Below, piece by piece: positions 827-33,304 of a stretch of 64,000 nt of DNA. The DNA comes from Woronichinia naegeliana WA131 (GTDB taxonomy: Bacteria > Cyanobacteriota > Cyanobacteriia > Cyanobacteriales > Microcystaceae). The notes below the pieces were generated by a model that ran no database searches, was not told where the DNA came from, and saw nothing but the letters and a program-made list of their open reading frames with translations. A program made the position numbers and the translations under genes. Where the stretch lies: positions 4,308,272 through 4,372,271 of the forward strand of contig CP073041.1 of assembly GCA_025370055.1 (NCBI GenBank), given 5' to 3'. Every line of letters begins with the position of its first letter. Within the stretch, counting starts at the first letter, position 1.

Positions 827-3800
827 CTAAATGTACTTTTTGAGCCAAAGGTGGTTAAAGATCAAGCGGTAAATACGATTATTGATCTTGAGAGAATTCG
901 CTTTTTTAATCACTAATCCTGATAGAAGTAATTCTCTTTCGACAGAATTGTCAGTTAGGGGAATTTCTTCCTGTTCTAACACCTGTCGGTAAAGTTCTAA
1001 GAGTTGGGCTGATCGTTTACTTTTCAGAAGGCGATCGCGAATCGTTTTCAAATGTTCTGGCTCGTCCTGATATTCCCAATTCTGGATCACCTGGGTTTGG
1101 ATCAAGTTTTGGAGCCAGGTGGCTTCGTCGTTGACGGGAATGGGAGTAGAAGTATTATGAATCAGTTTACAAATTTTTTGAGTGAGAAAAGGTTGACCAT
1201 TCGTCCAGTTGAAGACTTCTTTGAGTAAGGTTTGGGGATTACTGACTTTTTCAGCTAAGCCTTGCAATAAAGGTTGGGCTTCATGTTCTTTAAAACCTTC
1301 TAGATGAATCGCTTGACCAATATTAAAAGGGGTTATCTGAACATCGGTCATTAAATCGCTAGGCGTTGTGACTCCAAAAAGAGCAAAGGTCAAACGCTGA
1401 TAGGCGGGATTAAGACTGCGTTGATTGTAACAGGAACGAATGAGGGCAAAAAAGTCATGAACAGAGAATTTTAAGCCGAGAACGCTGTCAATTTCATCAA
1501 TAAAAATAACCAAGGGTTTGGTGGGAATACCATTTTCTACACCCACTTCCGTTAATAGGACTTCTTCGATCAAGTCACTTAATCTTTGAACAGGGGGCCT
1601 ATCTTCTCGTTCTTGCCACCAGCTTTTTAGGTTAATCTTGCTCCGCAAATCAAAACGGCGTAATAGCTCAAAGGCGAATCCTTTATACCACTGTTCTGGA
1701 GTTACGTTTTCACTGCCGATGCGGGTCATGTCAATGGGCGCACAGCAATAGCCCTCGCGCTGGAGATAGTCAATCATCCGCACCATTAAACTGGATTTAC
1801 CGACCTGTCGGGGATTAAGAACGTAGCAAAATTCTCCTCGTTTTAAGGCTTTATAAAGATAGCGATCGCTGACTCGGACGACGTAGGTAGAGGCATCCAT
1901 CGGTAAGCTTCCGCCCACTTGATAATCGAAATTTGAAAAGGAATCTTCGCTACGGAGTAAATCATTTTCAAAACGGAGTTCGGCTTGGGTAGCTTGGAGA
2001 ATTTTTAGGGTTTGAGATAATTCTTTGGTTCGTTCTTCTACTTTTTGTTCCAAAGTCTGACTATACTCTTCTAGTTCATTTTTAGCTCGTTCTAGAGCAA
2101 GATTTTTGAGGGCTAGTTCTTGGGTAAACTGAACTCGATCCGTTTCAGCTTGTTTGCGTTGGGTAATATCTTGGAAGGCAGCGATCGCATAGGCAATTTG
2201 ACCTTTCTCGTTAAAAACAGGAGTAGCTGATACATCTAAAGGAATTGTTCGATCAACTTGGTGAATCTCCATATCATCCGCAGTTGTACTTTCGCCATTT
2301 AATGCTTTTACAATGGGTTGTTGTTCAGTTGGGTATAATTGGTCTGTCCCTGCTAAATAAGCATGGTAAATTTCAGTCAATTGATTGCTTGATGCAAGAG
2401 TTACAATTCCTTTGCCAAGAATGTTCTGGGCAGTCTGATTTGCATAGTAGGGTTCGCCCTTAGCATTAAGCACAAAAATACCTATGGGGATAGCTTCTAA
2501 AAATTGAGTTAATCTTTTCTCATTCTCACTTAGAGCGACATAAAGTTGAGCGTTTTGTAGAGAAATTCCAGCTTGATAAGATAAGAGTTTTAGGACTTCT
2601 AAGCGATCAGGAGTAAAGGCACCAGTACTGAGATTATTTTCTAAGTAAAGCAGTCCAATAACTTGACCTTGATGGATGATGGGCGTACATAAAATAGATT
2701 TAGATTGGTTTTGAATTATATAAGGATCTGTTGTGAATATTCCCTCACAAGTTGCATCGTTTAAAACCACATTTTCTCTGGTTCTTTCTACATAATTGAT
2801 TAGAGATAGGGGCAAATGTTGGCTAGTCGAAACCATGACTGATTCGCTCACTATCACTTTATCTTGCTCCACAGTACCTTGGGTTTTAATGAGTAACTGA
2901 CCTTCCTTTACCAAGATGAAAAAACCAGTTTGAGCACCAGCATTCTCAATCATGATTTTTACCAAATTTTCCACAAGTTTATCCAACAAAATGTCGCTAG
3001 AAATCGTTTGCGATGCTTTAAGCACGGTAGCTAAATCTAGGGCTTCACTAGAACCACCAGTAGTTTTTGAAACGCTTGGGAAAGTGGCTTTGTTTTTGGA
3101 TAATGCTGAAGCCAAAAACTGCGGGTATCGAGTCTCCATATCTTTTAGCTTGGCTAAAGCCCCCCAGCGCTGATAGGCGTAGTAGGCATCAACTAAATAA
3201 TGACGAGCTACCTGTTTTTGGTCCCTGCCTAAATAAAATCGGGCTGCTAGTTCGTTAGCCAGAGCTTCTTCGTTGATATATTCGTTTATTGTTGCTAGAG
3301 AGATAGCTTGATCGTAATATTCCCTAGCATCTTTATGTTGACCTAATACCCTGGCAAGTTCAGCCTCAACTAGATAATATTTATGCAAATAATTCATGGG
3401 GGCATGATGAGACCAATGCTTCATTTTTGTCTGATTGGCAGTTACTTTTTCGAGAATGTACTGTTGTTGGATATTTAGAGTATCAGTAAGCATCGCCAAT
3501 CTAGCGAGAGAATCATAAAAGTGAAAAATGGCAAAATTAATTGTCCCGACTGCGTTTCCTACATATTCTTCTGCCTCTGTTGAATTTTCAATAGCTTGAG
3601 GGTATTTCTGAAATAAATAGCAAAGAATTAGTTTCTGGAGATACATCTCACAAAGGGCATTGCGATCATTTATTTCCAGATAAACTTGTCTCATGGTTTC
3701 TTCATTATAATGCTCTCCAATTAAGCGACAATTGTCTTCAGATTTTCCTCTCAGATTTAAGACGGCTTGCCAATAAGTTTTATGTCTTTCAAGTATATGC

Positions 3801-6800
3801 TTCTGCTGAATTTGAGATATGGCAGCACTAGCTTTTTCCATTTCCCGTTCTAGTTCTCCCAGTTCCTTACCCATATAGTAGCCAAAGTAGCAGCATGAAT
3901 GTATTCCCCATGCAGCAAAATGCAAATCCCCTGTTTCTAGCCCGATTCTATATCCTTCTAAAAAAGGAGTGAGAGTTTCTCTGATATGCTCTTTCCAATG
4001 TCTGACAAAACAATTTACGATGAAGAAAGTACTCGGCTTAAGTTCTTTGGCATCAAATTTTTTGAGCAGCTTCAAAGTGAGTTGACCAACTTTATAACCA
4101 CCATCAAGATCTTCTACTACTCCACAGAGAACTATTCCATATAGAGCATAGGCCTTAGCCGACAAAATTGTATTACCATATTTAACCGATAAGCTGACCA
4201 TTTTCGACACAACCATTGTGAAGAGGGGAGGAGAGGTAACATAGCAACAGTGTATCATTTGAAACATGAAATCCATGACTGCCAGTTTTTCTGGATCTGT
4301 CATTTCAGGCAAATTGACTAAATCCTCTATATCTTTAATTCCCCTCTTACCTAAAGCCGATTTAACTTCTTCAAGACTCTTTTCAACATCCAATTGGCTG
4401 GGTAGTTTTGGAAAAACTACGCCCATCATTTCCAGAATTGACAGCGCGATCTTCACTGCTTCGACTAGCTTATTCTGCGAGGCATTAGCTTGGATTTTCA
4501 GAGTATAAACTTTCGCTTTATCCAGCAATGTGTTTGCTTTTTGCAATACGACCTCAATTAACCGTTCCATCTGCTCCAGATCACCAATGAGGAACTTTGT
4601 TTCTGCCGCTTCTATATACAGTTTTAGTGTTAAATCATACTGCCTCTGCCAGTAGTCCTCCCCTAATAGGCTCAATCCAACCTGAAAGTAATTGAATGCT
4701 GGTTGATAAGCTGCTGATTTCTTGGCTTTTTTACCAACTATTAGATTTAATCTAGCTAGTTCATCTCGCTCTTCCTGTCGATTAATTAACTGCCTACCCA
4801 AGTTTAATTGGTTGACAATCTCAAAGATTTTAGAATCTTCTTTTTCTAAAGAAATGCCATGCAACAGCAGTTGACCTATATGCAGATGAACAGCTTGTTT
4901 ATCCGCTTCGGGAATTAGGGAATAGACTGCCTGGTGGATTCGGTCATGGGAAAACTTATATTCAACAGTGACTGTCTCTGCCAAACCCTGTACATCAGAT
5001 TCTGTTAGCTTGTAAGCATCACTAAGAGGTAAAACTAAACCATTGAAAAGTGCTGGCAACAGATCTGTTGCGGTTTTTTTGGGCGATTGTTTATATACAG
5101 TTGCCAAAGTCTGGAGATCAAATTGGTTACCAATAGAGGCTGCCAACTTTAATACCTGTTGTGTTGCCACCCCCAACTTTTGCACCTTAATGGCCATTAG
5201 TTCGACCACATTATCGGTTATAGCTTGAGCTTGAATTTCCCTTAAATCCCACTGCCAATGGTTAAGCTGATAGTCAAATGTTAACAGTTCTTCGCTATAC
5301 AGTGCTTTTAAAAACTCATTTATAAAGAAAGGATTGCCATTAGTTTTGGTTAGCACTAATTCTGCCAGTGGTCTAGCAGTCTCTACTGCAACATTGAGAG
5401 TCATACTAATTAACTGATTTACCTCGATCAATTTTAAAGGCTGCAAGGTGATGTAACTGACAAGATCTTCAGTTTTACTAATCTCATCCAAAGTAAGCAT
5501 TAAGGGATGAGCCTGAGTGACCTCATTATTTCGATAGGCACCAATAATGTATAAATAATAGCTTTCAGTTGGTGTCATTAGTAGTTGAATGAGTTTCAAG
5601 GAAGCTTCATCAGCCCATTGTAAATCGTCTAGAAATAACACTAATGGATGTTCAGGCTGGGCAAATACCTGGATAAAGTTTTTAAATACCAAGTTGAAGC
5701 GATTTTGGGCTTCCATTGAAGCTAGTTCTGCTACAGTGGATTGGGAACCAATAATCAGTTCTACTTCGGGAATTATATCAATAATTATCTGACCATTATT
5801 TCCCAGAGCAGCTAATAATTTTTGTCGCCAAGCAGATATCTGGACTTCGTTTTCCGTCAAGAGTTGCTCTATTAAGAAGCGAAAGGCTTGTACTAGGGAC
5901 GAATAAGGAATATCTCTTTGAAATTGGTCGAATTTCCCAGAGATAAAGTACCCCTGCTGCCGAGTAATTGGCCTATAGACTTCCCTTACTAAAACCGACT
6001 TACCAATGCCGGAATAACCTCTTACCAGCATCATTTCCTTTCCCCCTTGGCTGACTCGTTCAAAGCCAGCCAACAATTGCTCAATTTCCTGTTGTCGCCC
6101 ATATAATCTCTGAGAAATTTGGAATCTATCCGAAATATCCTGCTGTCCTAGAAGAAAGGGATTAAGGCATCTCGTTTGCTCCCATTGTCTGTGACATTCC
6201 TCTAAATCCATCTTGAGACCGTAGGCTGATTGGTAACGATCTTCAGCGTTTTTAGCCATCAGCTTCATGACAATCTCCGATAGAATGTGAGGAATCTCTG
6301 GCACGAGTGCGTGAGGAAAGTTGGGTTGTTTAGCGATATGGGAGTGAACCAACTCCATTTCCTCAGTAGTTTCAAAAGGCAATCGATTAGTTAATAGCTC
6401 ATAAAAAGTTACCCCCAAAGAATAAAAGTCAGTGCGATAATCAATGTCTCGATTCATGCGCCCAGTTTGTTCTGGCGAAATGTAGGCTAATGTACCTTCT
6501 AACTGATTCGGGTTGCCTAAGGTGGTTTTTTCTCGTGAGAGTACGGTTGAAATGCCAAAGTCAATGAGTTTGATCTGACCTGTTGTGGGGTTTAAAACTA
6601 TGTTGGATGGGTTAATATCTTTGTGGATTATTAGACACTGATGGACCTGAATTAGAATCTCAACAATTTGTCTGGTAATGGTTAGAAACTCAGCCAAAGT
6701 GAATTGTCTGCCTTTCTGCATTAATCGTTCTAGAGATTCAGCGCCAAAATCCTCCATGACTATTAGCCAACAGTTTTGTTCATTTTCCAAGTTATAGGCA

Positions 6801-7033
6801 TTTACTACGCCCCTAAGTTGAAGGTTTTTGGTGATTGTATACTCTCGTTTGAACCAGGCTATTTTTTCTGGAGGTGGATAGGCTTGCTTTAGGGTTTTGA
6901 GTATAACTGTTTGGCTATCTCCTACCCGATGTCCGCGATAAACCAGCGAGTTGGTACTTTCATAAAGTTTTTCAATAATCTGATAGCCGGAAATAATTGC
7001 CATAATTATTATTGCTTTTGCTATAGATCTCAA
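827..7033 (-). CDS. Giant (2068 aa) multidomain signalling protein. N-terminal Ser/Thr protein kinase, then AAA/STAND-type NTPase (P-loop GYSGIGKS), TPR-like helical repeats, GAF, PAS, coiled coil, and a C-terminal 'AAA-like' ATPase domain (P-loop [10 protein letters not shown]).
   Basis: Kinase motifs [11 protein letters not shown] and DFG..APE-like (AYISPEQ); Walker A GYSGIGKS; TPR-like region; GAF/PAS-like segments; coiled coil [29 protein letters not shown]; C-terminal domain [23 protein letters not shown] resembling the AAA-like domain of the protein at 13805-15121. Confidence 0.8.
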
Positions 7034-7205: not shown

Positions 7206-8015
7206 TTACACACTTTGTTCCTCTGCTCTACAACTGACTACCAATGCTCGACGTTGTTGGACTGTCTTATTTGGGCGGGAATAATGTAATGTGTGGCAGT
7301 GGTGAACAGTTGCTCCTCCAGGTGCTAAGGGGCAAACAACTGCTTGAGAGTATTGTACTCCGTCTGCTATCAAACCTGAGCCTGTCCTATCTCCTTCATA
7401 GGGACGATGCGGTATAATGCCTCCAAGATGAGAACCAGGGATGAAATGCAAACAGCCGTTCTCGGGGGTGGCAGGGTCTAAAGGCATCCAAATTTTGAGG
7501 AGATCAAGCGAGCCAGGATAGGCAGCATCTTGGTGCCAGGGCATCTCAGCACCAAAGTGTGCTGGCTTTAGGTACAGACGCACTCTGCCGATGACCTTTG
7601 TTTCCTCGACATTGAGAAGGTGTGCCACAATCTTAAGGGTATTGCGGAAGTAGATCGTATCTATCAGTTGGGGAAAGACTAACTCTGGAGATGGTATCCA
7701 CACCAAGATTTCTCTCCCACCAGCAAGAGGTAGCTGTTGTTGATCTGCAAGTAGAGCTATCTTTTCTGGGCAGTATACTTTCATCTCTTCTATGATGCGA
7801 TCGTAGATTCCCTTCAGCCACTCAATTTCTTGGTCAGTAGTAATACGGTCGAAAATCAGGAATCCTTGTTTTTTAAAGACGGTAACTTGCTCATCTTTCA
7901 GATTTAAATTCAATTTATCTTTCATAACTTGGTGACAAGATAACAGATGTTGTAGAGGTTTAGCAATGCCAAACCCCTGCAATAATGTAACATAAAATAC
8001 ATTTTCCCATGACAT
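7206..8015 (-). CDS. Phytanoyl-CoA dioxygenase (PhyH) family Fe(II)/2-oxoglutarate-dependent oxygenase
   Basis: 269 aa. HxD...H facial triad context WHQDAAY ... HFIPGSHLGG ... HHCHTLH and overall PhyH-like layout. Lies 46 bp downstream of, and co-oriented with, the NHLP precursor gene. Confidence 0.7.
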   Translation of the reverse strand: MSWENVFYVTLLQGFGIAKPLQHLLSCHQVMKDKLNLNLKDEQVTVFKKQGFLIFDRITTDQEIEWLKGIYDRIIEEMKVYCPEKIALLADQQQLPLAGGREILVWIPSPELVFPQLIDTIYFRNTLKIVAHLLNVEETKVIGRVRLYLKPAHFGAEMPWHQDAAYPGSLDLLKIWMPLDPATPENGCLHFIPGSHLGGIIPHRPYEGDRTGSGLIADGVQYSQAVVCPLAPGGATVHHCHTLHYSRPNKTVQQRRALVVSCRAEEQSV

Positions 8016-8060: not shown

Positions 8061-8369
8061 TCAAATGCAACAAAGTTGCATTATCCCAAAAATACCCGGG
8101 TTCTCCGAAAGAAACTGTTCAAGCTCCTTTAGAGTTAAGCTTCCCAAACCTTCTGGTAAATCGGGTATGGCAAAAAATCCACCAGCACCACTACCAAGGT
8201 CACTTATATCACCTAGTTCTGGGGGCTTTTCCGCTTGTAGCCTTTCAATCTCTGTTTTAGGATCTTGCCGCAAATTGGCCAAAATGCTTGGGTTACTCCA
8301 AGCATTAGCAATTAGTCTAGCCCATTGTTCTTGTTCGTTCATATTTTTTTTAAGTGGGAAATGAAACAA
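8061..8369 (-). CDS. NHLP (nitrile-hydratase-leader-peptide)-type RiPP precursor peptide. The likely true start is the internal ATG giving MNEQEQWARLIANAW... (about 8342). The leader ends in a double glycine (SGAGG) and the predicted core is FFAIPDLPEGLGSLTLKELEQFLSENPGIFGIMQLCCI.
   Basis: The leader ARLIANAWSNPSILANLRQDPKTEIERL matches the conserved NHLP leader pattern (..AKAWEDPAFKQ.LL.NPKAAIE..), followed by a GG motif. It is divergent from the YcaO/dehydrogenase operon and directly upstream of the PhyH gene. The ORF-track start is a TTG. Confidence 0.65.
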   Translation of the reverse strand: MFHFPLKKNMNEQEQWARLIANAWSNPSILANLRQDPKTEIERLQAEKPPELGDISDLGSGAGGFFAIPDLPEGLGSLTLKELEQFLSENPGIFGIMQLCCI

Positions 8370-8483: not shown

Positions 8484-10324
8484 GTGGTGTGGAGTCACTA
8501 TGAAGAGCCAATATTGTGGAGGAAAATTATGCTAAGTAACACTAATCAAGATGCAAACAATAATTATGACGAAGCTTACAATTTTTTAGAACGATCAGAA
8601 ATAGACCCCGATCAACCAGACATTCGTTTCAGACTAGAGGATATACAAGGCAATATTCTTAAAAGTCACGGGAGAACTTATTCTATTTATGTTTTCTTAC
8701 ACTTTGACAACAGTCAACCAGAAGCTACTAAGAAATGGATTGGGGATTTTGCTGAAAAGTATGTTGTATCTGCCATTAGGCAACGAGAACAAACCCAAGA
8801 ACATAAAAAATTCCTTAAAACAAAGAAGGAAGCTTCGTCTTCAACCTTATTTGTTAATTTTTCTTTATCATTTAAAGGGTATGAAGCATTAGGATTAGAT
8901 GCTAAGACTAATTTCCGAAAACTTTATCAGCAAAAACTACAAGATAAAGAACGTTCTTTTTCTACACATCCTTTCGAGGAGGGAATGCTCGAAAACCTAG
9001 AGAGTCTCAAGGACAAGAAAAGAGATTGGGAGATTGAGTATCAACAAGTTGAGTCCAGTGTAATGAACAACGATATTCATGCTTTAATCTTACTGGCTGA
9101 TTGCGATATCGATAATTTATGTGAAAAAACACAACAAATATTAGATAATATTGAAGCGAACAACATTAGAATTATTAAGAAAGAAATTGGTTGGGTACGT
9201 AAGAACGATCAAGATCAGTGTATAGAACCATTTGGGTTTGCAGATAATATCAGTAATCCTTTATTTCTGAAATCAGATATTTACCAAGTAACAGATAAAG
9301 ACCAATGGGACCCAAGTGCTAACTTGCGCTTGGTGCTTAATGTCGATCCTTTTGGCAATCTCCAGAATAAGGGTTATAGCTATGGAAGTTTTTTAGTTTA
9401 TCGAAAGCTGGAACAAAATGTAGAGGGTTTCAATGAAAAAATCAAAGAGTTAGCTGGTAAGTTAGAAAATCTAGGAGCCGATTCCCATCCAAAAAAGAAA
9501 CAGAACAACTCGTTAAAGCTTATACTATGGGGCGTTTCCAAAATGGACGGCCTGTTATGATTTATAGTAGCCCAGATTCTCTAGAACAAAGTGGAGTAGA
9601 TTTAAATAATTTTAACTATGGAAAGGGAAATGATTTTAAAGAAACATCTCGATGGAAATGCCCATTTCACGCTCACATTAGGAAGATGAATTCGCGGGCA
9701 ATAAGTGATAATGTACATAGTGGTACTTATAAAGATAAACCAGATAACCAACGTCAGAGAAGAATTGTTCGGCGAGGAACAACCTACGGTTTACCCAAAG
9801 AAAATCAAACTTCACTCTTGTCACAAACAACGAAAGAAAACTTACGGCACTACAAAAGCCTCTCAGAAAAACTGGGAGTCAAAACAGAAGTGGGTAAGGA
9901 AGGATTGCTATTTTTTTGTTTCCAAAGTGATATTCACGCCCAATTTGAGAAGCTTCAAGACTACGCTAATGATAACAATTTTGGGACAAATCCATTCGGA
10001 AAACTAGGCGCAGATCCTATTTTGGGACAGCAAAAGACACTGTTAATTCAACAGGTGACAGATAGGATATTAAAAATACCGTTAATTCATCGGGTGACAA
10101 ATAGTATATTAAAGACACCGTTAATTCAATGGGGGAGAGAAAAATTGCCGCCAATGCTAAAAGAAGCGTTTGGCAAATGGCCAAGTCAGACATGGCCAAG
10201 AACGTGGGGAAATTCACAAGACCCAGTTAAGGATTTCGATTTTTTTGGGTATGTGACTCCTAGAGGAGGTGAATATTTCTTTACACCCAGTCTAAGTTTC
10301 CTGAAATCCCTAAAAGAAGAATGA
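8484..10324 (+). CDS. DyP-type haem peroxidase split over two overlapping ORFs (8484-9560 and 9527-10324), implying a frameshift near 9490-9530. The likely start is the ATG at 8529, preceded by GGAGG.
   Basis: ORF1 contains a GXXDG-type motif (EPFGFADNISNP, distal Asp). ORF2 contains FHAHIRKMNSR (candidate proximal His and distal Arg) and RRGTTYGLP. The two ORFs change frame around the A6GA3 run at 9491-9500, and the ORF2 frame is open upstream back to 9461. Confidence 0.5.
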
Positions 10325-12582
10325 GTCAGATAACTGCTTATCGTCCCAAATTGAAATCCTGCTTTCGTTGTGAAATTATTCCCTCGGAAGGGGTTTTGCT
10401 GCTATCTGAAAACCAATCTATTATTCTTCCTAATCCTGCCTTCATTAAGTTAGTTCAACTTCTCGATGGCCAGCACACCCTAGAAGAGATTATTAAGCAA
10501 CTTCAGCAAAAAATGCCTTCCGCAGAAGTTCTATCCCTGCTGATGCAAATTAAGAACTATACAGTTGATGCTACTCCTTCTATACCCTCAGAACAAGCTG
10601 CTTTTTGGGAAATGCTTGGCATTCAACCAGAAGTAGCTTACCAACGGTTGCAAACCACCTCCGTGACAGTAACAACCTTTGGCAATATTGATCCAACTTC
10701 CTTCGAGACCATGCTAACTTCCGTGGGGGTACAAGTCAGGGATGGAGAAGAGCGGTCAATCGTTCTCACTGATGATTACCTGCAACCAGGGCTAGAAGCT
10801 TTTAATCAGCAAGCTTTGTCCGAAAATCGTTCTTGGCTGTTAGTCAAACCTATGGGGACAGAGATTTGGTTAGGCCCCTTGTTTATTCCAGATAAAACAG
10901 GGTGTTGGGAGTGTCTCGGACAACGACTACAGGGTAAGCGAAAGGTCCAAACCTATCTCCAGCATAAACAAAAGACGAATCACCCTTTCTCTTCATCCTT
11001 AGCTGTTTTACCCTCTACTTACCAAACAGCCCTCAGTTTAGCCGCCACCGAAACTGTTAAATGGATAGTAAGTGAAGCAAATGAAAGTATTGAAGGTAAC
11101 ATCATTACCCTCAATACTTTAACTCTCGAAAAAAACAACCATCCCCTGATTCGTCGTCCTCAATGCCCAACTTGTGGAAATCCCAACTTGATGGCTCAAA
11201 AACAATCAATAATACCAGTTTTACAAAGTCGCCAAAAGAATTTCACCAGTGATGGCGGGCATCGCAGTATTGCACCAGAGGAAACTTTTAGGAGATTGCA
11301 ACCTTATATTAGTCCAATTACAGGAATAATAAGCCTTCTGGGACAACCTCAAGGTTGGGAACACCAGCAGCAATTCACGCCTGCTTACATTAGTCAGGGC
11401 ATTTTCTTAGAGTATAACCAAGACTTAGAATCTCTACGCCGCAGTCTGAATCGATGTGCTAGTGGTAAGGGAAAAAGTGATATCCAAGCCAGAGTTAGTG
11501 CCATTGGGGAGGCGATGGAGCATTATTCAGGAGTTTTTCATGGGGATGAATACCGCGTTCGAGACCGCCTGAAAAATCTCAGTAACCCAATTCATCCGAA
11601 CGCCTGTATGTTGTTTAGCGATCGCCAAATCCAAAATCGGCATCTAGAAACTTCCAACCCGTCTCGTCTCAACTGGATTCCCGAACCCTTTGATGAAGAA
11701 CAGCAAATTGATTGGAGTCTAGTTTGGTCTTTGACTGATAATGAGCCTCGATACCTTCCTACTGCTTATTGTTACTACGGCTATGCTCAACAGCATCACA
11801 TCAAGTTTACTAGGGCTGACTCCAATGGCTGTGCTGCGGGTAACACCATGGAAGAGGCGATTTTACAAGGCTTTATGGAGTTAGTCGAGCGGGATAGCGT
11901 AGCTTTGTGGTGGTACAACCGTTTGCGAAAACCAGCAGTGAATCTTGCCGATTTTAATGAACCATACTTCCAAGAATTGCTGAGATTCTATCAGCAACAC
12001 CACCGCGATCTCTGGGTATTGGATATTACCAGCGATTTTAACATTCCTACCTTTGCTGCCATTTCTCGACGAAATGACCAAGCTGTTGAAAATATTATTC
12101 TCGGTTTTGGAACCCATTTTGACCCACAAATTGCTATTCTTCGCGCCTTAACTGAACTCAATCAGTCACTCCCTGCTGTCTTGTCTAACAAGCCTGAACA
12201 CAGTCGTGCTTACCGAGATCATTATCCTGAAGCCCTAGAATGGTGGCAAACGGCAACTCTTGAAAATCAACCCTATTTAATCCCTGATGAAAGTACAACC
12301 TGTAAGGTTTCAGCAGACTATCATAACAACGGTTATGGTGACCTTTATACTGATGTAATGAGTTGTGTAAACCTGGCTCAATCCAAGGGATGGGAAACTC
12401 TAATTTTAGATCAGACTCGCCCTGATGTTGGATTGTCAGTTGTCAAAGTTATCGTCCCTGGGCTGCGACATTTTTGGCCTCGATTTGCCCCAGGACGGCT
12501 GTATGATATTCCCGTCCAAATGGGGTGGTTAACAACACCATTAACAGAGGAGCAATTAAATCCTCTACCTATTTTCTTTTAA
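10321..12582 (+). CDS. Fused E1-like/YcaO cyclodehydratase (PatD/TruD-like azoline synthetase) with an N-terminal RRE (PqqD-like) leader-binding domain
   Basis: 753 aa. N-terminal winged-helix RRE-like segment (LLLSENQSIILPNPAFIKLVQLLDGQHTLEEI). C-terminal YcaO hallmark (GCAAGNTMEEAILQGFMELVERDSVALWWYN) and proline-rich C-terminus. The start overlaps the upstream ORF by 4 nt. Confidence 0.8.
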   Translation: MSQITAYRPKLKSCFRCEIIPSEGVLLLSENQSIILPNPAFIKLVQLLDGQHTLEEIIKQLQQKMPSAEVLSLLMQIKNYTVDATPSIPSEQAAFWEMLGIQPEVAYQRLQTTSVTVTTFGNIDPTSFETMLTSVGVQVRDGEERSIVLTDDYLQPGLEAFNQQALSENRSWLLVKPMGTEIWLGPLFIPDKTGCWECLGQRLQGKRKVQTYLQHKQKTNHPFSSSLAVLPSTYQTALSLAATETVKWIVSEANESIEGNIITLNTLTLEKNNHPLIRRPQCPTCGNPNLMAQKQSIIPVLQSRQKNFTSDGGHRSIAPEETFRRLQPYISPITGIISLLGQPQGWEHQQQFTPAYISQGIFLEYNQDLESLRRSLNRCASGKGKSDIQARVSAIGEAMEHYSGVFHGDEYRVRDRLKNLSNPIHPNACMLFSDRQIQNRHLETSNPSRLNWIPEPFDEEQQIDWSLVWSLTDNEPRYLPTAYCYYGYAQQHHIKFTRADSNGCAAGNTMEEAILQGFMELVERDSVALWWYNRLRKPAVNLADFNEPYFQELLRFYQQHHRDLWVLDITSDFNIPTFAAISRRNDQAVENIILGFGTHFDPQIAILRALTELNQSLPAVLSNKPEHSRAYRDHYPEALEWWQTATLENQPYLIPDESTTCKVSADYHNNGYGDLYTDVMSCVNLAQSKGWETLILDQTRPDVGLSVVKVIVPGLRHFWPRFAPGRLYDIPVQMGWLTTPLTEEQLNPLPIFF

Positions 12583-12608: not shown

Positions 12609-13775
12609 ATGAGTGACTCATCAAGCAAGGAGCAGCATTTTGTTATCTCTACCTCAGAGAAAACTTGGGCTGAGATCGCTCCTTTTGGTACAAAACAAGT
12701 TGTCCCTTTTCCTCTAGAGTCGAACCAACTATATACGCTCTCACGTTTTGCCTACCTCCACAATCTTGACGGGAAAATGGTGCTGGAATCTCCCTTGGCT
12801 CATTGTCAAGTGATTCTGTATGATGAGCGATCGCTTGCCATTTTTCATGCTCTTTCTGCTCCTCAAACTCTGGCACAATTGGGTAATCAATTTTCAGATA
12901 TTCCCCAAGATATTATTGCAACCTTCCTAAGTTGGTTGCTAGGAGAGAAATTTTTAGCGGTTACTGATAAAGATGGAACGGTCAATGAGGAACCATCATT
13001 ACATCTGTGGGAACTTCACGACCTGTTGTTTCATGCCAGAAGTCGTTTAGGAAGGCATAATTATCCCTATGGGAAAAGCAATCTCCATTTAGGTAAAATC
13101 GAACCACTTCCTGCTGTGAAGTCGTCAAACTCATTTGCAACAATTACTCTATATCAGCCAAATATTGAAGCCTTGATGGATTGTGATATTCCCTTCACTC
13201 GTGTCATGGAACAAAGGCGATCGCAAAGGCAACAAGGTAAACAGCCAATTACTATTGAACAATTAGGTGAGTTTCTCTATCGTACTGCTCGTATTAGATC
13301 GCTCAAAATGACTGAATCTGTCGAGTATGAATTTAGCGATCGCCCCTATCCTAGTGGTGGTGCTTGTTATGAGTTGGAACTGTATTTGATAATCAATGCT
13401 TGTCAGGGAATAGAATCAGGACTCTACCATTACTGTCCCAAAGAACATTTTCTCTGTCAATTAAACGGTTACACGGGAGAAGTTTATAAACTTTCCTGTC
13501 AAGCAGTTACTGAATCAGGCTTACCTCAAGTCTTAATTATCCTAGCAGCCCGCTTTTCCAGAGTCGCTTGGAAATATCGCTCTCTTGCTTATTCCTTGAC
13601 ATTAAAACACGTCGGCGTTCTTTATCAAAGTATGTATCTAGTTGCAACAGCGATGGAGCTTGCCTCTTGCGCCATCGGAGGAGGAGATTCTGACCTGTTT
13701 GCCGAAGCAACTAAAACTGATTACTTGATTGAAACTTCCGTCGGTGAATTTATACTGGGTAGCCAAGCAGACTAG
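12609..13775 (+). CDS. SagB-type (McbC-like) FMN-dependent azoline dehydrogenase
   Basis: Nitroreductase-like motifs RRSQRQ and RPYPSGGACYELELYL. The ORF-track start at 12525 overlaps the YcaO gene; the ATG at 12609 (MSDSSSKEQHFV...) is the more plausible start. Confidence 0.75.
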   Translation: MSDSSSKEQHFVISTSEKTWAEIAPFGTKQVVPFPLESNQLYTLSRFAYLHNLDGKMVLESPLAHCQVILYDERSLAIFHALSAPQTLAQLGNQFSDIPQDIIATFLSWLLGEKFLAVTDKDGTVNEEPSLHLWELHDLLFHARSRLGRHNYPYGKSNLHLGKIEPLPAVKSSNSFATITLYQPNIEALMDCDIPFTRVMEQRRSQRQQGKQPITIEQLGEFLYRTARIRSLKMTESVEYEFSDRPYPSGGACYELELYLIINACQGIESGLYHYCPKEHFLCQLNGYTGEVYKLSCQAVTESGLPQVLIILAARFSRVAWKYRSLAYSLTLKHVGVLYQSMYLVATAMELASCAIGGGDSDLFAEATKTDYLIETSVGEFILGSQAD

Positions 13776-13804: not shown

Positions 13805-15121
13805 TTAGCGACTATTGAATCTTTCGGCAAAATACTGTCTATACAACTCACAACTCAAGATCACTTGATTTCCATACTGTTTAATTAGTCCCATGCTACT
13901 TAATTTATGGATCAGAATATTATCATCTAGAGAAATAGCTTCAGTCGCATCCATGACACGTTTAAGCGCAGTAGTTAATTTAGGTTGTTCTTGCAATGTG
14001 GCCCAATGTCGCTGCAAATAGTGAGTATAAATGCCAACATTTGTGGCCGCAGTTTCTAATAGTTGTTCTAGGGTCATTTCTCCCTGACCCAGGTGATAAA
14101 AGGCAATTTGTACCAATGCGGGATGACCATCTACCATCTCCATCAGTTGTTGACAATGTTCTCCTTGTCCACAGTCTAGTCCGTAGCATTGTGCTAATTT
14201 TTTAACCTCTTCTTGAGAAAAGTTACTTAACTGAATGGGCAATCCTATATTAAAGGGAGACTGATTAAGCTGAAGCGGAACGTAAATTTCTGTGGAGTGG
14301 ACGATGACTAGACGAAGTCTTTGCCAGAGGGGTGAGGTTTTGGCTTCTTCGTACCACGATCGCAGTAGAGGAAAAAAATCCTTTGCCACCTCAGAATGCT
14401 CAAAAAGCTGGTTTGCCTCATCTAAAGCCAAAACGAGAGGCGTTTGGATTGACTTTAATAGATAATCTTCAAAATAGGAAGTACAACTAATTTTGCTACC
14501 TAAGTCTTGATCCCAATATTCATCTAATCTAGGTTCTAAGTGAAGTTGACGGGCAACATTAGCACAAAGCCAGCGCAAAAATTGATTGAGGTTATTCAGG
14601 ATGGCTTGATCCGCTTGGTCTAAATTGAGGCTAACGGTCTGGTAGCCCTGGTTTTTTGCAAATTCCAAAAGTCTCAGTAATAGCGAGGTTTTACCCATTT
14701 CCTTTGGAGCTTTGATTCGCACGAGGGAACCTGGTTTCCTAATTTCTTGTTTACTTTGTTCTTCGACGGGAAAGCGTTCGAGATAAAAAGGGGAACCGAG
14801 GGGAACGGCTCCATTGGGGTAAAGCGGCTGGGGATTAGGATTAGTTTCTAAAAATTCAAGGTTTTCAGGGGTTTTAGGATTTGTCGGGGATGTTGTTTCA
14901 AAGTCCAGATTAGCTATTTCTTTCCATTCCAAGCCCAATTGCCGACAGAGTTCTTCAAAGGTGGTGAAGTCAACGGGTTTGCCTGTGAGAAAGTTACTGA
15001 CGGTAGCCAGGGCCAAACCAACCTCTTCCGCTAAGGCTCGTTGGCTGGGGAAGCCGTTGCGTTGGAGGGCTAGTTTGACGCGGCCTAGTTGGGCTGGTTG
15101 GACTCTCAGCGATCGGGGCAT
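13805..15121 (-). CDS. HTH-containing 'AAA-like domain' ATPase (N-terminal helix-turn-helix plus P-loop NTPase), a possible regulator
   Basis: The N-terminus (QRALAEEVGLALATVSNFLTGK) is HTH-like. Walker A KEMGKTSLLLRL. The overall domain is similar to the C-terminal domain of the giant kinase at 827-7033. Confidence 0.6.
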   Translation of the reverse strand: MPRSLRVQPAQLGRVKLALQRNGFPSQRALAEEVGLALATVSNFLTGKPVDFTTFEELCRQLGLEWKEIANLDFETTSPTNPKTPENLEFLETNPNPQPLYPNGAVPLGSPFYLERFPVEEQSKQEIRKPGSLVRIKAPKEMGKTSLLLRLLEFAKNQGYQTVSLNLDQADQAILNNLNQFLRWLCANVARQLHLEPRLDEYWDQDLGSKISCTSYFEDYLLKSIQTPLVLALDEANQLFEHSEVAKDFFPLLRSWYEEAKTSPLWQRLRLVIVHSTEIYVPLQLNQSPFNIGLPIQLSNFSQEEVKKLAQCYGLDCGQGEHCQQLMEMVDGHPALVQIAFYHLGQGEMTLEQLLETAATNVGIYTHYLQRHWATLQEQPKLTTALKRVMDATEAISLDDNILIHKLSSMGLIKQYGNQVILSCELYRQYFAERFNSR

Positions 15122-15303: not shown

Positions 15304-15714
15304 ATGACAGGGCAAATTGTTGAAGCGAATGATTTTAAGCTTGGTAACAAGGATACGCAAATCTACTATCTAGTAGAAAATATCGTTGGTAAACCACAGC
15401 TAATTTATAAAACGCCGCAACTTGACCGTCAGTTTTATGGAGAAGACATCCGTGTTCTAGAAACGGAGATTGGTAAGTTAGTCACTGTTACCGTCGAAAG
15501 ACCACCAATTCCCGATATAGGGGGAAAAGTTGTCACCTTAACTTTGTTGTTACCAGTTATAAACTTATCAGCTAGTTTAGAAATTTCTATTCAGACTGAG
15601 GCAGTTTTAACTACTAAATTGCAACAAGGTTTTATTAATAACCCGCCTGAAGGGCAACTACAGACTTATGAAATCCTTTCTTTAGCAGGGACGGCCAATC
15701 TGGTTAATACTTAA
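15304..15714 (+). CDS. Hypothetical protein (136 aa)
   Basis: Clean ORF with an ATG start upstream of the secretin-like gene; no recognisable motifs. Confidence 0.4.
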   Translation: MTGQIVEANDFKLGNKDTQIYYLVENIVGKPQLIYKTPQLDRQFYGEDIRVLETEIGKLVTVTVERPPIPDIGGKVVTLTLLLPVINLSASLEISIQTEAVLTTKLQQGFINNPPEGQLQTYEILSLAGTANLVNT

Positions 15715-15921: not shown

Positions 15922-17916
15922 ATGAAAAAGTTAGTTCGTCCGTTTGCCCTTGGTTTAAGTATGATGGTTGGCTTCGGGGTCAACATTCCTGCTCTGAATG
16001 CAAAAACTCCATCTAAACCCAATCAGTCAGTAGCTAATCCTTGCGAAGAAGCTCAAAACGTGTGTGCTGCTGAATCCGTTCCACTTTATTACAATCGTTC
16101 AGCAGACGCAATTAAAACGATACTGGAAAAAATTGTTGGTGATGGTAAGACTGGCAAATTTGCGGGAACTTTTATCGGAGAAAATGGCACTGGCACTGGC
16201 GAAGCATCTGGTAATAACCATAATGTAATCGTCCTATATGGTACAGATGACAACCGAAAAAAACTCAAACGAATCATTGCAATTCTCGACCTTCCCCGTG
16301 AGCGCGTCAATATGGAGATGTGGGGAATACTAATCTCTAGTGACAATCCTCAGCAATTGGCTGAAGTCATGAATCGGGTTAACAAGGAAATTGATAAGAC
16401 TCAACAATTACTGCAAGAGACCTACAATCAAATTAAAGAATATTCCATCAATTATGCTCTTAAGGCAGAGAATAATCCTGATCTTAAAATAGAACCTGAT
16501 TTTAAGAATTTATTTACAGAGGTTCTTGGATATAAAACAGCATTTGATGAAGATTCTTCTTCTCTCTCTATGATAGATATTTTGCTAATCTTGTTAGCAA
16601 GAAATAAACCTAATATTGCATATAATAATGCAGCAAATGGTCTTTGTCAGATTTTCTTTAAAAAAGACGGCCAGCCTAAAGAAGATTTTCAACCCTATTT
16701 AGAGGCTTTAGCTAAAAATGAAAAAAAACGACCCTTTGAAAACTATATCCGTTTGGGTTTACATCAAGAGGATAAAGGATCAACCCCAGGGTGTAACAGT
16801 CTAAAAAATGCTGAGGATTTAGATCAAAGAAATTTTATTGCACGAAAAGCCGTTCTAAATTTTGCCTTACAATATTCTCGTCTCAAGAGAATACCAGCCG
16901 AAATTGATCCCGATGCTTTACAAGAATCTGCCGAAACATTGAACTCTGTTTTGGAACCTGTGGTTAATGCGCTTAACCGTGACATAGAAGATTTGTTCAT
17001 TCAACCGACTTTAGAAAGAATTCAACGCATCGTGAGCGAATATGATGATGTAAGCTATGCGGAAGTGGGCAAAACCAGTGTCGCAGGATTAAATGGTATT
17101 CATTCGGAAGTCTCTTCAACATCAGTCAGTACCTTTGATGAAACTGGCCCTTTAAGGCTTAGTCAATGGCTTGAGGATGCGGGCAAACTCAATAACAGTG
17201 TCTCAAGTTTATTACCAAAAGAGGTTGCGTTTGAAGGTAGTCCAATCCCTGTATCCTCTTTGATAAGTACGGTTGCTGCCCTGAGCGCGGATCACTCCCA
17301 ATGGCGAGGATTAACATCAGGGATTTCGATAACGATTACCCCTTCGGTGTTACGCAACAGCGAGTCGGCAGAACTGCAAATAGATTTTACCACTGGCCCA
17401 AAAGAGATCACTCAAGGAGAAGAGAGTAACAACGGACAAACGAAGCTACGTCCTTTATCCCGCATTGCCCAGAGTCATGTGAAAACAAGTGTTTATGTTA
17501 AAACCTTAGATTTATTTGCTCTTTCTACTTTCAATAATCAAACTACTGAAGATGGTGGACGAGGCTATATCCCTCTAATTGGCCCAATTTGGAAAGGATT
17601 TTTCAGTGGACTTCCAATTGTTGGCGATCTGTTCAGTTGGCAGAATGCACCCAACAATGTTCAGCATCAAAGTATTGCATTAGTTAACTCCTTTATTGTC
17701 CCTACTGCAATGGGATTAGCTCATTTATACAGCAACAGTAACAGTAACACAATTCCCTTTGAATATAAGTCTTCTGCCGTTGAAAGATATTTGGATTGTC
17801 TTAAGAAAAAGAATCAAGCAACTGTTGTTGATTCTCAGTGTTTTGTTACAAGCCCGCAACAACCATATCAATATCAGCAACTCCCACCTCAATATCAACC
17901 TGACTTTTCCCGTTAA
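15922..17916 (+). CDS. Divergent secretin-family outer-membrane protein (signal peptide, secretin-N-like module, C-terminal secretin motif). The last ~4 codons and the stop are supplied by the inserted IS.
   Basis: Signal peptide MKKLVRPFALGLSMMVGFGVNIPALNA. Secretin_N-like HNVIVLYGTDDNRKKLKRIIAILDLPRERVNMEMWGILISS. C-terminal IPLIGPIWKGFFSGLPIVGDLFS resembling the conserved secretin PxLGxIPxLGxLF motif. The reading frame continues across the IS as ...QYQQVPNTGVRP* at 21114+. Confidence 0.5.
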   Translation: MKKLVRPFALGLSMMVGFGVNIPALNAKTPSKPNQSVANPCEEAQNVCAAESVPLYYNRSADAIKTILEKIVGDGKTGKFAGTFIGENGTGTGEASGNNHNVIVLYGTDDNRKKLKRIIAILDLPRERVNMEMWGILISSDNPQQLAEVMNRVNKEIDKTQQLLQETYNQIKEYSINYALKAENNPDLKIEPDFKNLFTEVLGYKTAFDEDSSSLSMIDILLILLARNKPNIAYNNAANGLCQIFFKKDGQPKEDFQPYLEALAKNEKKRPFENYIRLGLHQEDKGSTPGCNSLKNAEDLDQRNFIARKAVLNFALQYSRLKRIPAEIDPDALQESAETLNSVLEPVVNALNRDIEDLFIQPTLERIQRIVSEYDDVSYAEVGKTSVAGLNGIHSEVSSTSVSTFDETGPLRLSQWLEDAGKLNNSVSSLLPKEVAFEGSPIPVSSLISTVAALSADHSQWRGLTSGISITITPSVLRNSESAELQIDFTTGPKEITQGEESNNGQTKLRPLSRIAQSHVKTSVYVKTLDLFALSTFNNQTTEDGGRGYIPLIGPIWKGFFSGLPIVGDLFSWQNAPNNVQHQSIALVNSFIVPTAMGLAHLYSNSNSNTIPFEYKSSAVERYLDCLKKKNQATVVDSQCFVTSPQQPYQYQQLPPQYQPDFSR

Positions 17917-24455: not shown

Positions 24456-24758
24456 ATGGTAAATTTCTCCAAGCGATCAATCACCTCTCTCGAACTGCTC
24501 ATTTCTGAAATAGAAGCCACACCTAGAGAGTATTGGACAGAACTACTAGAAACCTTGCGCCAATTTCGGCAGACAATTCCGTTAACAAACTCACCCGTTA
24601 TTAACGCAGAACAAGCTCAAAAAAATCAAGCCGCGATTGATCTTTTAGACTCCTGGTTGAGTGAAGATGAAGATGCTTCAGAACATCAACAAACTTGGGA
24701 CTATTTAAAAAAGGTTATGGATGAAGACCGTTTATCAGATCGTCCTCTATTCCCATGA
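24456..24758 (+). CDS. Putative antitoxin (100 aa) of a type II TA pair
   Basis: Small acidic protein whose stop overlaps the start of the downstream PIN-like gene (ATGA overlap at 24755). Confidence 0.45.
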   Translation: MVNFSKRSITSLELLISEIEATPREYWTELLETLRQFRQTIPLTNSPVINAEQAQKNQAAIDLLDSWLSEDEDASEHQQTWDYLKKVMDEDRLSDRPLFP

Positions 24759-25207
24759 ACCGCTTAATTTTATTAGATTCGGGGCCGTTAGGCATGGTGA
24801 CAAATCCCAAGGCAAAAGGACTTCCGCTTGCTTGTCAACAGTGGCTAAAAAGGCTTCTAAAACGAGGTGAACGATTTGCAATTCCTGAAATTGCAGATTA
24901 TGAGGTACGTCGAGAATTGCTCCGTGCCAATTTATTGAAAAGTGTTCATCGTCTCGATCATTTAACCCAAACGCTTGAATATATTCCTATTCAAACAGAT
25001 ACCATGTTGTTAGCTGCAAGTCTTTGGGCAGAAGTCAGAAAAATGGGACAACCAACGGCCGATCCCAAGGCATTAGATGGAGATGTTATTCTAGCTGCTC
25101 AAGCGCAAATATTGGCTAATAAGATGACACCAGTAATTATTGCGACAACTAATGTTGGTCATTTGAGCCGATTTGCTACAGCCTTAAATTGGCAGGACAT
25201 TGATTAG
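24755..25207 (+). CDS. PIN-domain (VapC-like) putative toxin
   Basis: N-terminal ILLDSGPLGMVTNP (PIN first acidic residue context), ~150 aa, 4-nt overlap with the upstream small gene. Confidence 0.5.
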   Translation: MNRLILLDSGPLGMVTNPKAKGLPLACQQWLKRLLKRGERFAIPEIADYEVRRELLRANLLKSVHRLDHLTQTLEYIPIQTDTMLLAASLWAEVRKMGQPTADPKALDGDVILAAQAQILANKMTPVIIATTNVGHLSRFATALNWQDID

Positions 25208-30686: not shown

Positions 30687-30722
30687 ATTTACATTCTAAA
30701 ATAGTAAAAGGAGACACAAACA

Positions 30723-33278: not shown

Positions 33279-33304
33279 ATTCAGAGAGTGTTAATTCCTT
33301 TATT

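Follow-up and report, generated by a model that had tools for sequence, protein, structure and literature searches.

The window analysed here, a 64,000-nucleotide stretch of the Woronichinia naegeliana WA131 genome (contig CP073041.1, positions 4,308,272 to 4,372,271), carries on its minus strand a small gene (8061..8342, 93 codons and a stop) that probably encodes the precursor of a thiazole-containing ribosomal peptide, namely a RiPP (a peptide made by the ribosome and modified after its translation) of the TOMM (thiazole/oxazole-modified microcin) or linear-azole type. In the reading that we favour and consider rather likely, translation starts at the ATG at 8342, the leader spans approximately residues 5-80 and the core is 10-13 residues long. 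This corrects the anatomy of the precursor: the core would be a fixed 10-13-residue tail with two cysteines and not a 38-residue peptide, and mass-spectrometry searches should therefore target the tail.

On comparative evidence the gene is genuine and under purifying selection. An open reading frame (ORF) called from a TTG covers 8061-8369 (minus strand, 102 codons) and an in-frame ATG at 8342-8340 gives a 93-residue product beginning MNEQEQWARLIANAW / MNEQEQWARLIA; both starts had been described in the original prediction and both are present on the minus strand, from 8369 to 8061 and from 8342. The whole ATG-started product reads MNEQEQWARLIANAWSNPSILANLRQDPKTEIERLQAEKPPELGDISDLGSGAGGFFAIPDLPEGLGSLTLKELEQFLSENPGIFGIMQLCCI and its C-terminal end, ...GIFGIMQLCCI, is followed by a TGA stop codon at 8063-8061. 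A search of 5.8 billion proteins returned ten homologues, 58-100% identical, which align over the full length with a mean column identity of 72-75%. The orthologues come from Chamaesiphon-like cyanobacteria. The ORF is not a chance one because it has these ten homologues, because they share the same gene neighbourhood on independent contigs, and because dN/dS against distant orthologues is ~0.2-0.36. It is single-copy in the window (tblastn). A plus-strand ORF at 8065-8364 was discarded as a shadow of the conserved minus-strand gene. As to its start, the ATG appears a better choice than the TTG, on a basis that is comparative and not direct: all homologues begin at an ATG, 2-9 codons ahead of a conserved EQxQWARLIA, the in-frame upstream stretch of the distant homologues L001, L003 and L012 contains no start codon, and the TTG extension (FHFPLKKN) has no equivalent in these three. 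An upstream nucleotide element, CCCACTTA, is common to the window and L001/L012 but is read in different frames, so the TTG-initiated stretch (LFHFPLKKN, 8343..8369, minus strand) is probably 5' untranslated rather than coding. The ATG, proposed earlier as an alternative start, is thus favoured by both the ATG positions of the homologues and the frame-shifted element. The Joint Genome Institute annotation, which uses the TTG (P0001), speaks against this choice; the close contig L011, whose upstream DNA is identical to that of the window, is annotated from the ATG. A promoter scan was unable to separate the two starts, a conserved TTGACA lying upstream of both.

The leader domain, residues 1-80 (8103..8342, minus strand), resembles the alpha subunit of nitrile hydratase (NHase) and appears to be a member of the NHLP (nitrile-hydratase-like leader peptide) clan, with its motif 1 (WARLIANAWSNPSILANLRQDP), P60-x-x-P63 and motif 2. 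When an orthologues-only alignment (A3) was compared by hhalign with a set of 12 canonical NHLPs, the two matched over window residues 5-80 (97.5% probability, E 6e-12) and the canonical leader-terminal AGG fell on L78-S79-E80; a joint alignment with the canonical NHLPs places the junction identically. The orthologue profile also matches the NHLP MprE7 and, in two colinear pieces (12-37 and 61-89), NHase alpha structures. NHase alpha is matched weakly by 11/11 family members and the NHLP model TIGR03793 by three of the 11 (best E 0.015). An exhaustive profile search with the orthologue alignment among 1.84 billion representatives (50% identity) yielded 43 relatives, including, with the A1 profile alone, the canonical NHLPs P0045 (E 2e-4, ...ELESMAGG|KCGTGG...) and P0050 (E 1e-3, ...LTRIAGG|GSLFC...); P0016 (1115 amino acids, eight matched stretches) was discarded as a false positive, being a repeat protein. 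Both P60 and P63 are invariant and correspond to the P-x-x-P motif common to NHase, NHLP and the NHLP-Burk family of Burkholderia (PMC2887384), and the metal-binding CxxCSC segment of NHase is absent from the peptide. An AlphaFold model of the precursor (mean predicted local distance difference test score, pLDDT, 80; predicted template modelling score 0.72) is confident for the body and of low confidence for the tail (residues 81-93), with pLDDT per 10-residue block of 82-91 for residues 1-50, 67 for residues 51-60 and 84-88 for residues 61-80. Near the end of this domain, L69-T-L-K-E-L74 (8121..8138, minus strand) aligns with the L(X)4L of ELSEEQL in canonical NHLPs; L69 is invariant and position 74 is L, V or I. 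The L(X)4L motif contributes to leader binding in the PatE-LynD and MprE7-MprC pairs (PMC12455567), and by analogy the heterocyclase is likely to contact L69(X)4L74 through its recognition (RRE) domain.

The original prediction had placed the leader/core junction after SGAGG (residues 51-55; 8178..8192, minus strand). The alignment with NHLP members places the junction at ~80 and not at G55, and our comparisons do not support SGAGG as the junction: it would be a variable loop inside the leader domain, aligning with the 'EETxxx' loop that precedes the YFVLP strand of canonical NHLPs. Because SGAGG is not the junction and the canonical Gly-Gly falls at residues 78-80, the core is only about NPGIFGIMQLCCI (residues 81-93; 8064..8102, minus strand), and we would define it as the last 10-13 residues, (NPG)IFGIMQLCCI. 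This tail follows the canonical Gly-Gly position, where P0020 has ENGG, and is the most conserved segment of the precursor, with 11/13 residues identical to distant orthologues and a dN of 0.07-0.13; its pLDDT declines from 60 to 42, which predicts flexibility. C-terminal to SGAGG, Cys, Ser and Thr occur only as S68, T70, S79, C91 and C92, in agreement with the C, C, S, T, S listed earlier as the sole modifiable residues. S68, T70 and S79 are not conserved among the orthologues; Cys91-Cys92 (8067..8072, minus strand) is invariant in 10/10 of them and is the predicted site of thiazoline, then thiazole, formation. The tails of 49 family representatives are equally economical: a terminal CC, or CC with one residue after it, is seen in 21, a terminal Ser or Thr in 19, and a Cys among the last four positions in five of the other nine. 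Judged from these tails, family members as a rule have one or two heterocyclisable residues, placed at the very C-terminus.

The precursor gene adjoins, and is transcribed divergently from, a cluster of YcaO/E1/SagB type, the gene set of a TOMM or linear azol(in)e pathway. The heterocyclase is a fused E1-like/YcaO protein of 753 amino acids (10321..12582, plus strand) with an N-terminal winged-helix RRE domain, where residues 8-71 give a PqqD-like/winged helix-turn-helix match. Over essentially its full length it matches the solved homologues LynD (3.3e-217), MusD (3.9e-217) and TruD (2.3e-204), and it passes the cut-offs of TIGR03604 (277.9 bits against 219) and TIGR03882 (163 against 36.9). 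Next to it is a ThcOx/SagB-type FMN azoline oxidase (12609..13775, plus strand; CyaGox 3.6e-67; PF22767 ThcOx and Nitroreductase; TIGR03605 171.6 bits), 388 amino acids long from an ATG that is backed by a 388-residue gene call in L005; the mechanical ORF, from a GTG, begins at 12525. On the other side of the precursor lies a PhyH-family Fe(II)/2-oxoglutarate dioxygenase (7206..8015, minus strand; PF05721 6e-26; nearest solved structure EvdO2, 5e-43), which is found in every locus with a CC-type precursor that we examined. Read from 8015, the PhyH ORF has 269 amino acids, ~30 N-terminal residues more than its homologues (237-242 amino acids); the real start may be M31 at 7925 (~239 amino acids), and the precursor stop would then be followed by a gap of ~135 nt. 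The upstream ATG of this gene is overlapped by a small hairpin at 8020-8005.

The reality of the precursor gene, its homology and conservation pattern, the enzyme family assignments and the synteny are established, and from them we infer all the modification steps. The LynD-like E1/YcaO protein would dock on the folded leader through its N-terminal winged-helix domain, at L69(X)4L74, and use ATP to cyclodehydrate Cys92 and Cys91 to thiazolines. The ThcOx-like FMN oxidase would then aromatise these to a C-terminal Leu-thiazole-thiazole-Ile, with an expected mass change of -40 Da, and the PhyH dioxygenase would probably add a further oxidation to the tail. The D-type haem peroxidase DyP, where functional, could provide an optional tailoring oxidation; its gene carries a frameshift in this strain. 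If the core is released at all, this would have to rely on unlinked functions, the cassette having no Gly-Gly site, peptidase or exporter, and the helix-turn-helix (HTH)-AAA_35 and giant kinase/STAND proteins encoded nearby would probably regulate the pathway or sense its product. The likeliest product in our view is a C-terminal bis-thiazole. MusD makes two adjacent azoles in muscoride. The original prediction had remarked that so few sites would be unusual for such an enzyme set; the sites are indeed very few, but this is not unusual per se, as there is precedent in the same enzyme clade.

The DyP gene (8529..10324, plus strand; nearest solved structure AnaPX Alr1585, 7.5e-72) changes frame at an A6 tract (9491-9496): its 0-frame reading stops at 9560 and the -1 frame (ORF frame 3) runs on to 10324, the two halves being called as ORFs 8484-9560 and 9527-10324. 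The switch is revealed when the intact DyPs of L001 and L003 are used as tblastn queries. It falls between the FGFADN (distal-Asp) and HAHIRK (proximal-His) motifs, both of which are retained together with an RRG motif. This could mean that the pathway is partly decayed in this strain, DyP being a pseudogene through the A6 tract and the product lacking a DyP-dependent step, and we give this reading an even chance. The position of the switch between the two motifs is what a pseudogene might show, the same A6 allele occurs in three independent metagenome contigs (L005, L007 and L010), folding of the downstream sequence is no better than that of shuffled sequence (z -0.16) and thus reveals no stimulatory RNA structure, and DyP is missing altogether in L014/L015. 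Yet both halves are still open and conserved. In addition, the 0-frame site CCA AAA AAG contains a slippery heptamer, A_AAA_AAG, in frame, and 13 nt upstream of it lies an AGGAG; slipping by -1 there would yield ...HPKKETEQLVKAYTMGRF, exactly the product of the intact A7 allele in metagenome contig L008, and the A7 allele coexists in related populations. The oxidative enzymes PhyH and DyP had been proposed as the main structural contributors to the product; PhyH, present in all CC-type loci, may well contribute, but the same can hardly be said of DyP, absent from L014/L015 and frameshifted here.

Comparison of related loci delimits the cassette. An A3 search of 185,579 species genomes found four loci only, all in Chamaesiphon or Chroococcales metagenome-assembled genomes (MAGs). 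The window, L001 (a Chamaesiphon MAG) and L003/L004 share a CC-type set of HTH-AAA_35, DyP, YcaO, ThcOx, precursor, PhyH and giant kinase-AAA_16-GAF-PAS-AAA_35 genes, in rearranged order and with neither protease nor exporter. On the short contigs L012/L013, also CC-type, DyP (cut by the contig end in L012), precursor, PhyH and giant kinase are seen; L014/L015, whose precursor is 26% identical and ends ...KMKLCCL, have the same set without DyP; and L016, with a fused two-domain precursor ending ...MMHCCR, has two DyPs and the rest of the set without ThcOx. The cassette is therefore kept despite gene-order rearrangement in L001, L003, L012, L014 and L016. In the Ser/Thr-type loci L017/L018, whose precursor tails end R-x-T, DyP, YcaO, an Amidohydro_2 protein and a giant kinase with a different C-terminus are present, PhyH and ThcOx absent. 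We conclude from these sets that three components are constant, namely the precursor, the giant kinase/STAND protein and the fused YcaO, that PhyH tracks the CC type and that DyP and ThcOx are dispensable. No protease or exporter was found among the called genes of the eight distinct loci, nor among the large ORFs of the window. In L017 (13768-14862) and L018 (12945-14024), with precursors ending R-x-Thr/Ser, Amidohydro_2 replaces PhyH, ThcOx is missing and the giant kinase ends in HisKA/HATPase or SpoIIE instead of AAA_35; because of this gene content, tailoring enzyme and kinase output domain co-vary with tail type.

Two presumptive signalling proteins accompany the cassette. The HTH and AAA_35 NTPase protein, a presumed regulator (13805..15121, minus strand; PF14516 2.4e-149), has counterparts adjoining the cassette in L001, L003, L014 and L016. 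The giant Ser/Thr kinase-AAA_16 (STAND)-GAF-PAS-AAA_35 protein of 2058 amino acids (827..7003, minus strand; domains from a domain scan) matches TIGR03903, the 'TOMM system kinase/cyclase fusion protein', only partially (142.6 bits against a cut-off of 705), and a giant kinase of the same type adjoins the cassette in every locus examined. In a PADLOC scan the generic kinase domain alone gave a match, and none of the cassette-specific proteins had a defence-system match; a literature search on AAA_35/PF14516/VMAP-M9 returned irrelevant matches only, and no paper describing this cassette was found in the literature searched (YcaO with DyP, peroxidase, PhyH, kinase or NHLP). About one third of the wider family are proteins of ~190-215 amino acids with two tandem NHLP-like domains (P0013, P0014, P0017-P0019, P0021, P0025, P0027, P0028, P0033, P0034, P0037, P0039, P0043, P0051 and P0058). 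In CC-type fusions a tail-like FGxMMxGG with a W after it closes the first domain (P0058, for instance, has ...FGQFMMCGG|WTVNDGEAW); this could be an internal Gly-Gly processing site.

A number of observations weigh against the bis-thiazole precursor with a short core. The precursor lies below the cut-off of every curated NHLP-clan model in Pfam and NCBIfam: scans gave only matches of E ~0.03, to NHase alpha and TIGR04351, and TIGR03793 (cut-off 50.9 bits) does not match the window peptide at E <= 10. The NHLP-type leader claimed at the outset thus holds at the profile level and fails at the curated cut-offs. Foldseek searches of the AlphaFold model against the PDB mostly return NHase alpha chains, at E >= 1.9, which is not significant. 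The boundary would lie somewhere within residues 80-83, and there is no recognisable cleavage motif or protease for release of the tail in the cassette: the canonical Gly-Gly motif (ELSxEELxxVAGG) does not occur in the precursor and the nearby N-P-G83 has a single Gly only. L016 has a CC-type precursor without ThcOx, so thiazole oxidation may not be universal. Finally, L011 (positions 1300-1450 compared with window 8061-8180) is ~100% identical to the window at the DNA level through the 5' part of DyP, the intergenic region and codons 1-55 of the precursor and then 68-82% identical over codons 56-93, as if the C-terminal module had been swapped, and residues 56-80 are the fastest-evolving of the precursor (dN 0.30-0.43). 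L011 looks like a recombination mosaic inside the precursor gene, its C-terminal half resembling P0007, and a breakpoint after SGAGG next to fast residues would fit a module boundary at G55. These last points, with the invariance of G55, are also what can be said for a leader of residues 1-55 ending in the Gly-Gly of SGAGG and a 38-residue core, FFAIPDLPEGLGSLTLKELEQFLSENPGIFGIMQLCCI, in which S68, T70, S79, C91 and C92 would all be possible sites. We nevertheless hold that model to be improbable. Only G55 is invariant in the motif, the residue before it being G, N, S or E in orthologues, which is no double-glycine motif, and three of the five possible sites are not conserved. Residues 56-80 are homologous both to the stretch of the NHLP leader ahead of the canonical Gly-Gly and to the C-terminal part of NHase alpha, and they are modelled within the fold (pLDDT 84-88). 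A C39 peptidase or ABC exporter is missing from the window and from every related locus. Moreover, a 55-residue leader would be atypically short, the mean end position of NHLP Gly-Gly motifs being 83 (PMC2887384). The proposal that YcaO acts on backbone amides to form thioamides or amidines, leaving most of the structural work to the oxidative enzymes, seems to us very improbable. It could draw on the match of YcaO to the McrA-glycine thioamidation model TIGR03266 (7e-51), a match that is below the cut-off (173 against 365 bits), on the very small number of heterocyclisable residues and on the lack of an azoline oxidase in L016. However, such a role is unlikely because the enzyme is a full-length homologue of the azoline-forming LynD, MusD and TruD (E ~1e-204 to 1e-217) beside an azoline oxidase, and the pair points to thiazoline, then thiazole, formation; it carries a fused E1-like docking domain (TIGR03882 above cut-off), a ThcOx/CyaGox-type oxidase adjoins it in four of the five CC-type loci, no TfuA-like partner occurs among the called genes of any locus, and the invariant residues are exactly the two Cys, with a terminal Ser or Thr in sister subfamilies.

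A further reading concerns the fate of the precursor. It is conceivable, though we think it unlikely, that no peptide is released and that the ~10-kDa NHLP-like protein keeps its leader, its C-terminal heterocycles serving as a built-in modification of an intracellular protein that works with the kinase/STAND and AAA_35 proteins, for instance by serving as ligand, cofactor-like partner or redox-sensitive switch. None of the eight distinct loci offers a protease, Gly-Gly site or exporter, and the same lack of an exporter was noted for NHLP-Burk by Haft et al. (PMC2887384). Conservation extends over the whole chain and not the tail alone (mean column identity 75%), the leader is predicted to have a stable fold, and the giant kinase-AAA_16-GAF protein adjoins in every locus, even where tailoring enzymes differ. 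Met and Cys abound in the tails, and genes for haem peroxidases often lie nearby. The case is nonetheless purely one of context: removal of leaders by unlinked proteases is common in RiPPs, and the kinase neighbours may be mere regulators. Taken to its full extent, this reading makes the cassette a module for protein modification and signalling, conserved among filamentous and colonial cyanobacteria, and not an antibiotic-type RiPP pathway: a folded, leader-retaining NHLP-like mini-protein would receive one or two C-terminal heterocycles and an oxidation by PhyH or DyP on its Met/Cys-rich tail, and the modified protein would serve the co-inherited giant kinase-STAND-GAF protein and the HTH-AAA_35 NTPase as a dedicated ligand or redox-responsive partner. 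We regard this joint proposal as doubtful; if it were true, NHLP-Burk of Burkholderia would be its proteobacterial counterpart.

Beyond the cassette, the window contains several other features. Just beyond it are a 136-residue protein with no family match (15304-15714, plus strand) and a 664-residue protein (15922-17916, plus strand) with weak secretin-like matches far below cut-off (SctC 3e-8, GspD 2e-5); both ORFs occur in the same-strain contig L005 and not in more distant loci. A rearranged or nested transposase region follows (17900-20700, minus strand), in which a 391-residue transposase ORF (18490-19665) is flanked by truncated copies, a C-terminal half at 17913-18530 and an N-terminal half at 20062-20700; direct repeats of at least 300 nt, 100% identical, pair 17900-18199 with 18477-18776 and 19042-19341 with 20077-20376. 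The neighbours at 21435-24182, 24456-25207, 29691-34606 and 38402-39964 are not apparently linked to the precursor cassette; among them are a 915-residue membrane protein with a weak patatin-like domain, a pair of small ORFs (100 and 150 amino acids), a CHAT-GUN4 protein and, next in order, an SPFH/Band 7 and a DUF4407 protein, and a KaiC-like double ATPase.

Returning to the favoured reading of a two-cysteine azole tail, the precursor would represent an uncurated branch of the NHLP clan, with 43 representatives (50% identity) among 1.8 billion proteins, all under existing model cut-offs. This branch departs from the common RiPP arrangement, in which the leader is conserved and the core varies; in the loci examined a giant kinase/STAND protein is always present and a protease or exporter never is. 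It is a rare cyanobacterial variant that is unusual in its fixed minimal core, in the lack of a release or export function and in its obligate link to giant signalling proteins. The literature searched yielded no other instance of haem-peroxidase and Fe/2-oxoglutarate tailoring beside a heterocyclase of the LynD type.

Among known systems, the cyanobactin and muscoride enzymes LynD, TruD and MusD and the oxidases ThcOx/CyaGox are the closest solved homologues of both core enzymes over their full length, the window YcaO being equally close to MusD and LynD. Unlike cyanobactin pathways, the cassette and related loci have no PatA/PatG subtilisin proteases and no macrocyclisation or prenylation genes, and there is no PatE-like precursor with flanking recognition sequences, the precursor belonging to the NHLP clan instead. 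NHLP-type TOMM D proteins are known to group with cyanobactin D proteins in clusters that lack the PatA/G proteases (Cox et al., 2015, PMC4603692), and both points hold for the window cassette. The canonical NHLP TOMMs and azole proteusins (TIGR03793; MprE with MprC/MprD, PMC12455567; nostatin A, PMC11583998) share with the window a homologous leader including L(X)4L, a YcaO with a recognition domain and a flavin oxidase, and thiazoles on the C-terminal core, formed there and predicted here. In canonical NHLPs the leader ends in Gly-Gly, the core is hypervariable, ~27 residues long and rich in Cys, Ser and Thr, and a peptidase-containing ABC exporter is encoded (PMC2887384). In contrast, the window precursor has no Gly-Gly at that position, its 10-13-residue core is its most conserved part with two sites only, both Cys, and no peptidase-containing ABC exporter or HlyD system is present.

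The family also resembles NHLP-Burk. In NHLP-Burk (TIGR03795, BMA_0021/BMA_0022) a long NHase-like leader without the Gly-Gly motif 2 precedes an 11-residue suffix, and the precursors, tandem or fused, lie near genes for a large Ser/Thr kinase and a fused cyclodehydratase-docking protein but near none for an exporter (Haft, Basu & Mitchell 2010, PMC2887384). Like these systems of Burkholderia, Delftia and Acidovorax, the window has a long NHase-like leader with motif 1 and P-x-x-P, no Gly-Gly motif 2, a very short suffix (~11 residues there, 10-13 here), a fused cyclodehydratase-docking protein and a large Ser/Thr kinase nearby, and no linked exporter, and the wider cyanobacterial family also includes fused two-domain forms (~200 amino acids here; in Delftia and Acidovorax there). 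There are differences: the precursor and its orthologues do not match TIGR03795 at E <= 10 (cut-off 41 bits), the best of the distant relatives (P0051) reaching 25.3 bits, under that cut-off; the window gene is single-copy whereas NHLP-Burk genes occur as tandem pairs or fusions; and the window kinase, below the TIGR03903 cut-off, carries GAF, PAS and AAA_35 domains. PhyH, DyP, ThcOx and AAA_35 are added in the window beside the NHLP-Burk set, and the host is a cyanobacterium; the kinase is the sole accessory gene named by Haft et al., whose paper uses neither the word peroxidase nor the word dioxygenase (PMC2887384). No experimental characterisation of NHLP-Burk was found in the literature searched. 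Our family seems to work like NHLP-Burk and yet is not a member of it by curated models. The combination of features was described for NHLP-Burk as early as 2010; a cyanobacterial version that is tractable could reveal both the products and the reason for the link to signalling.

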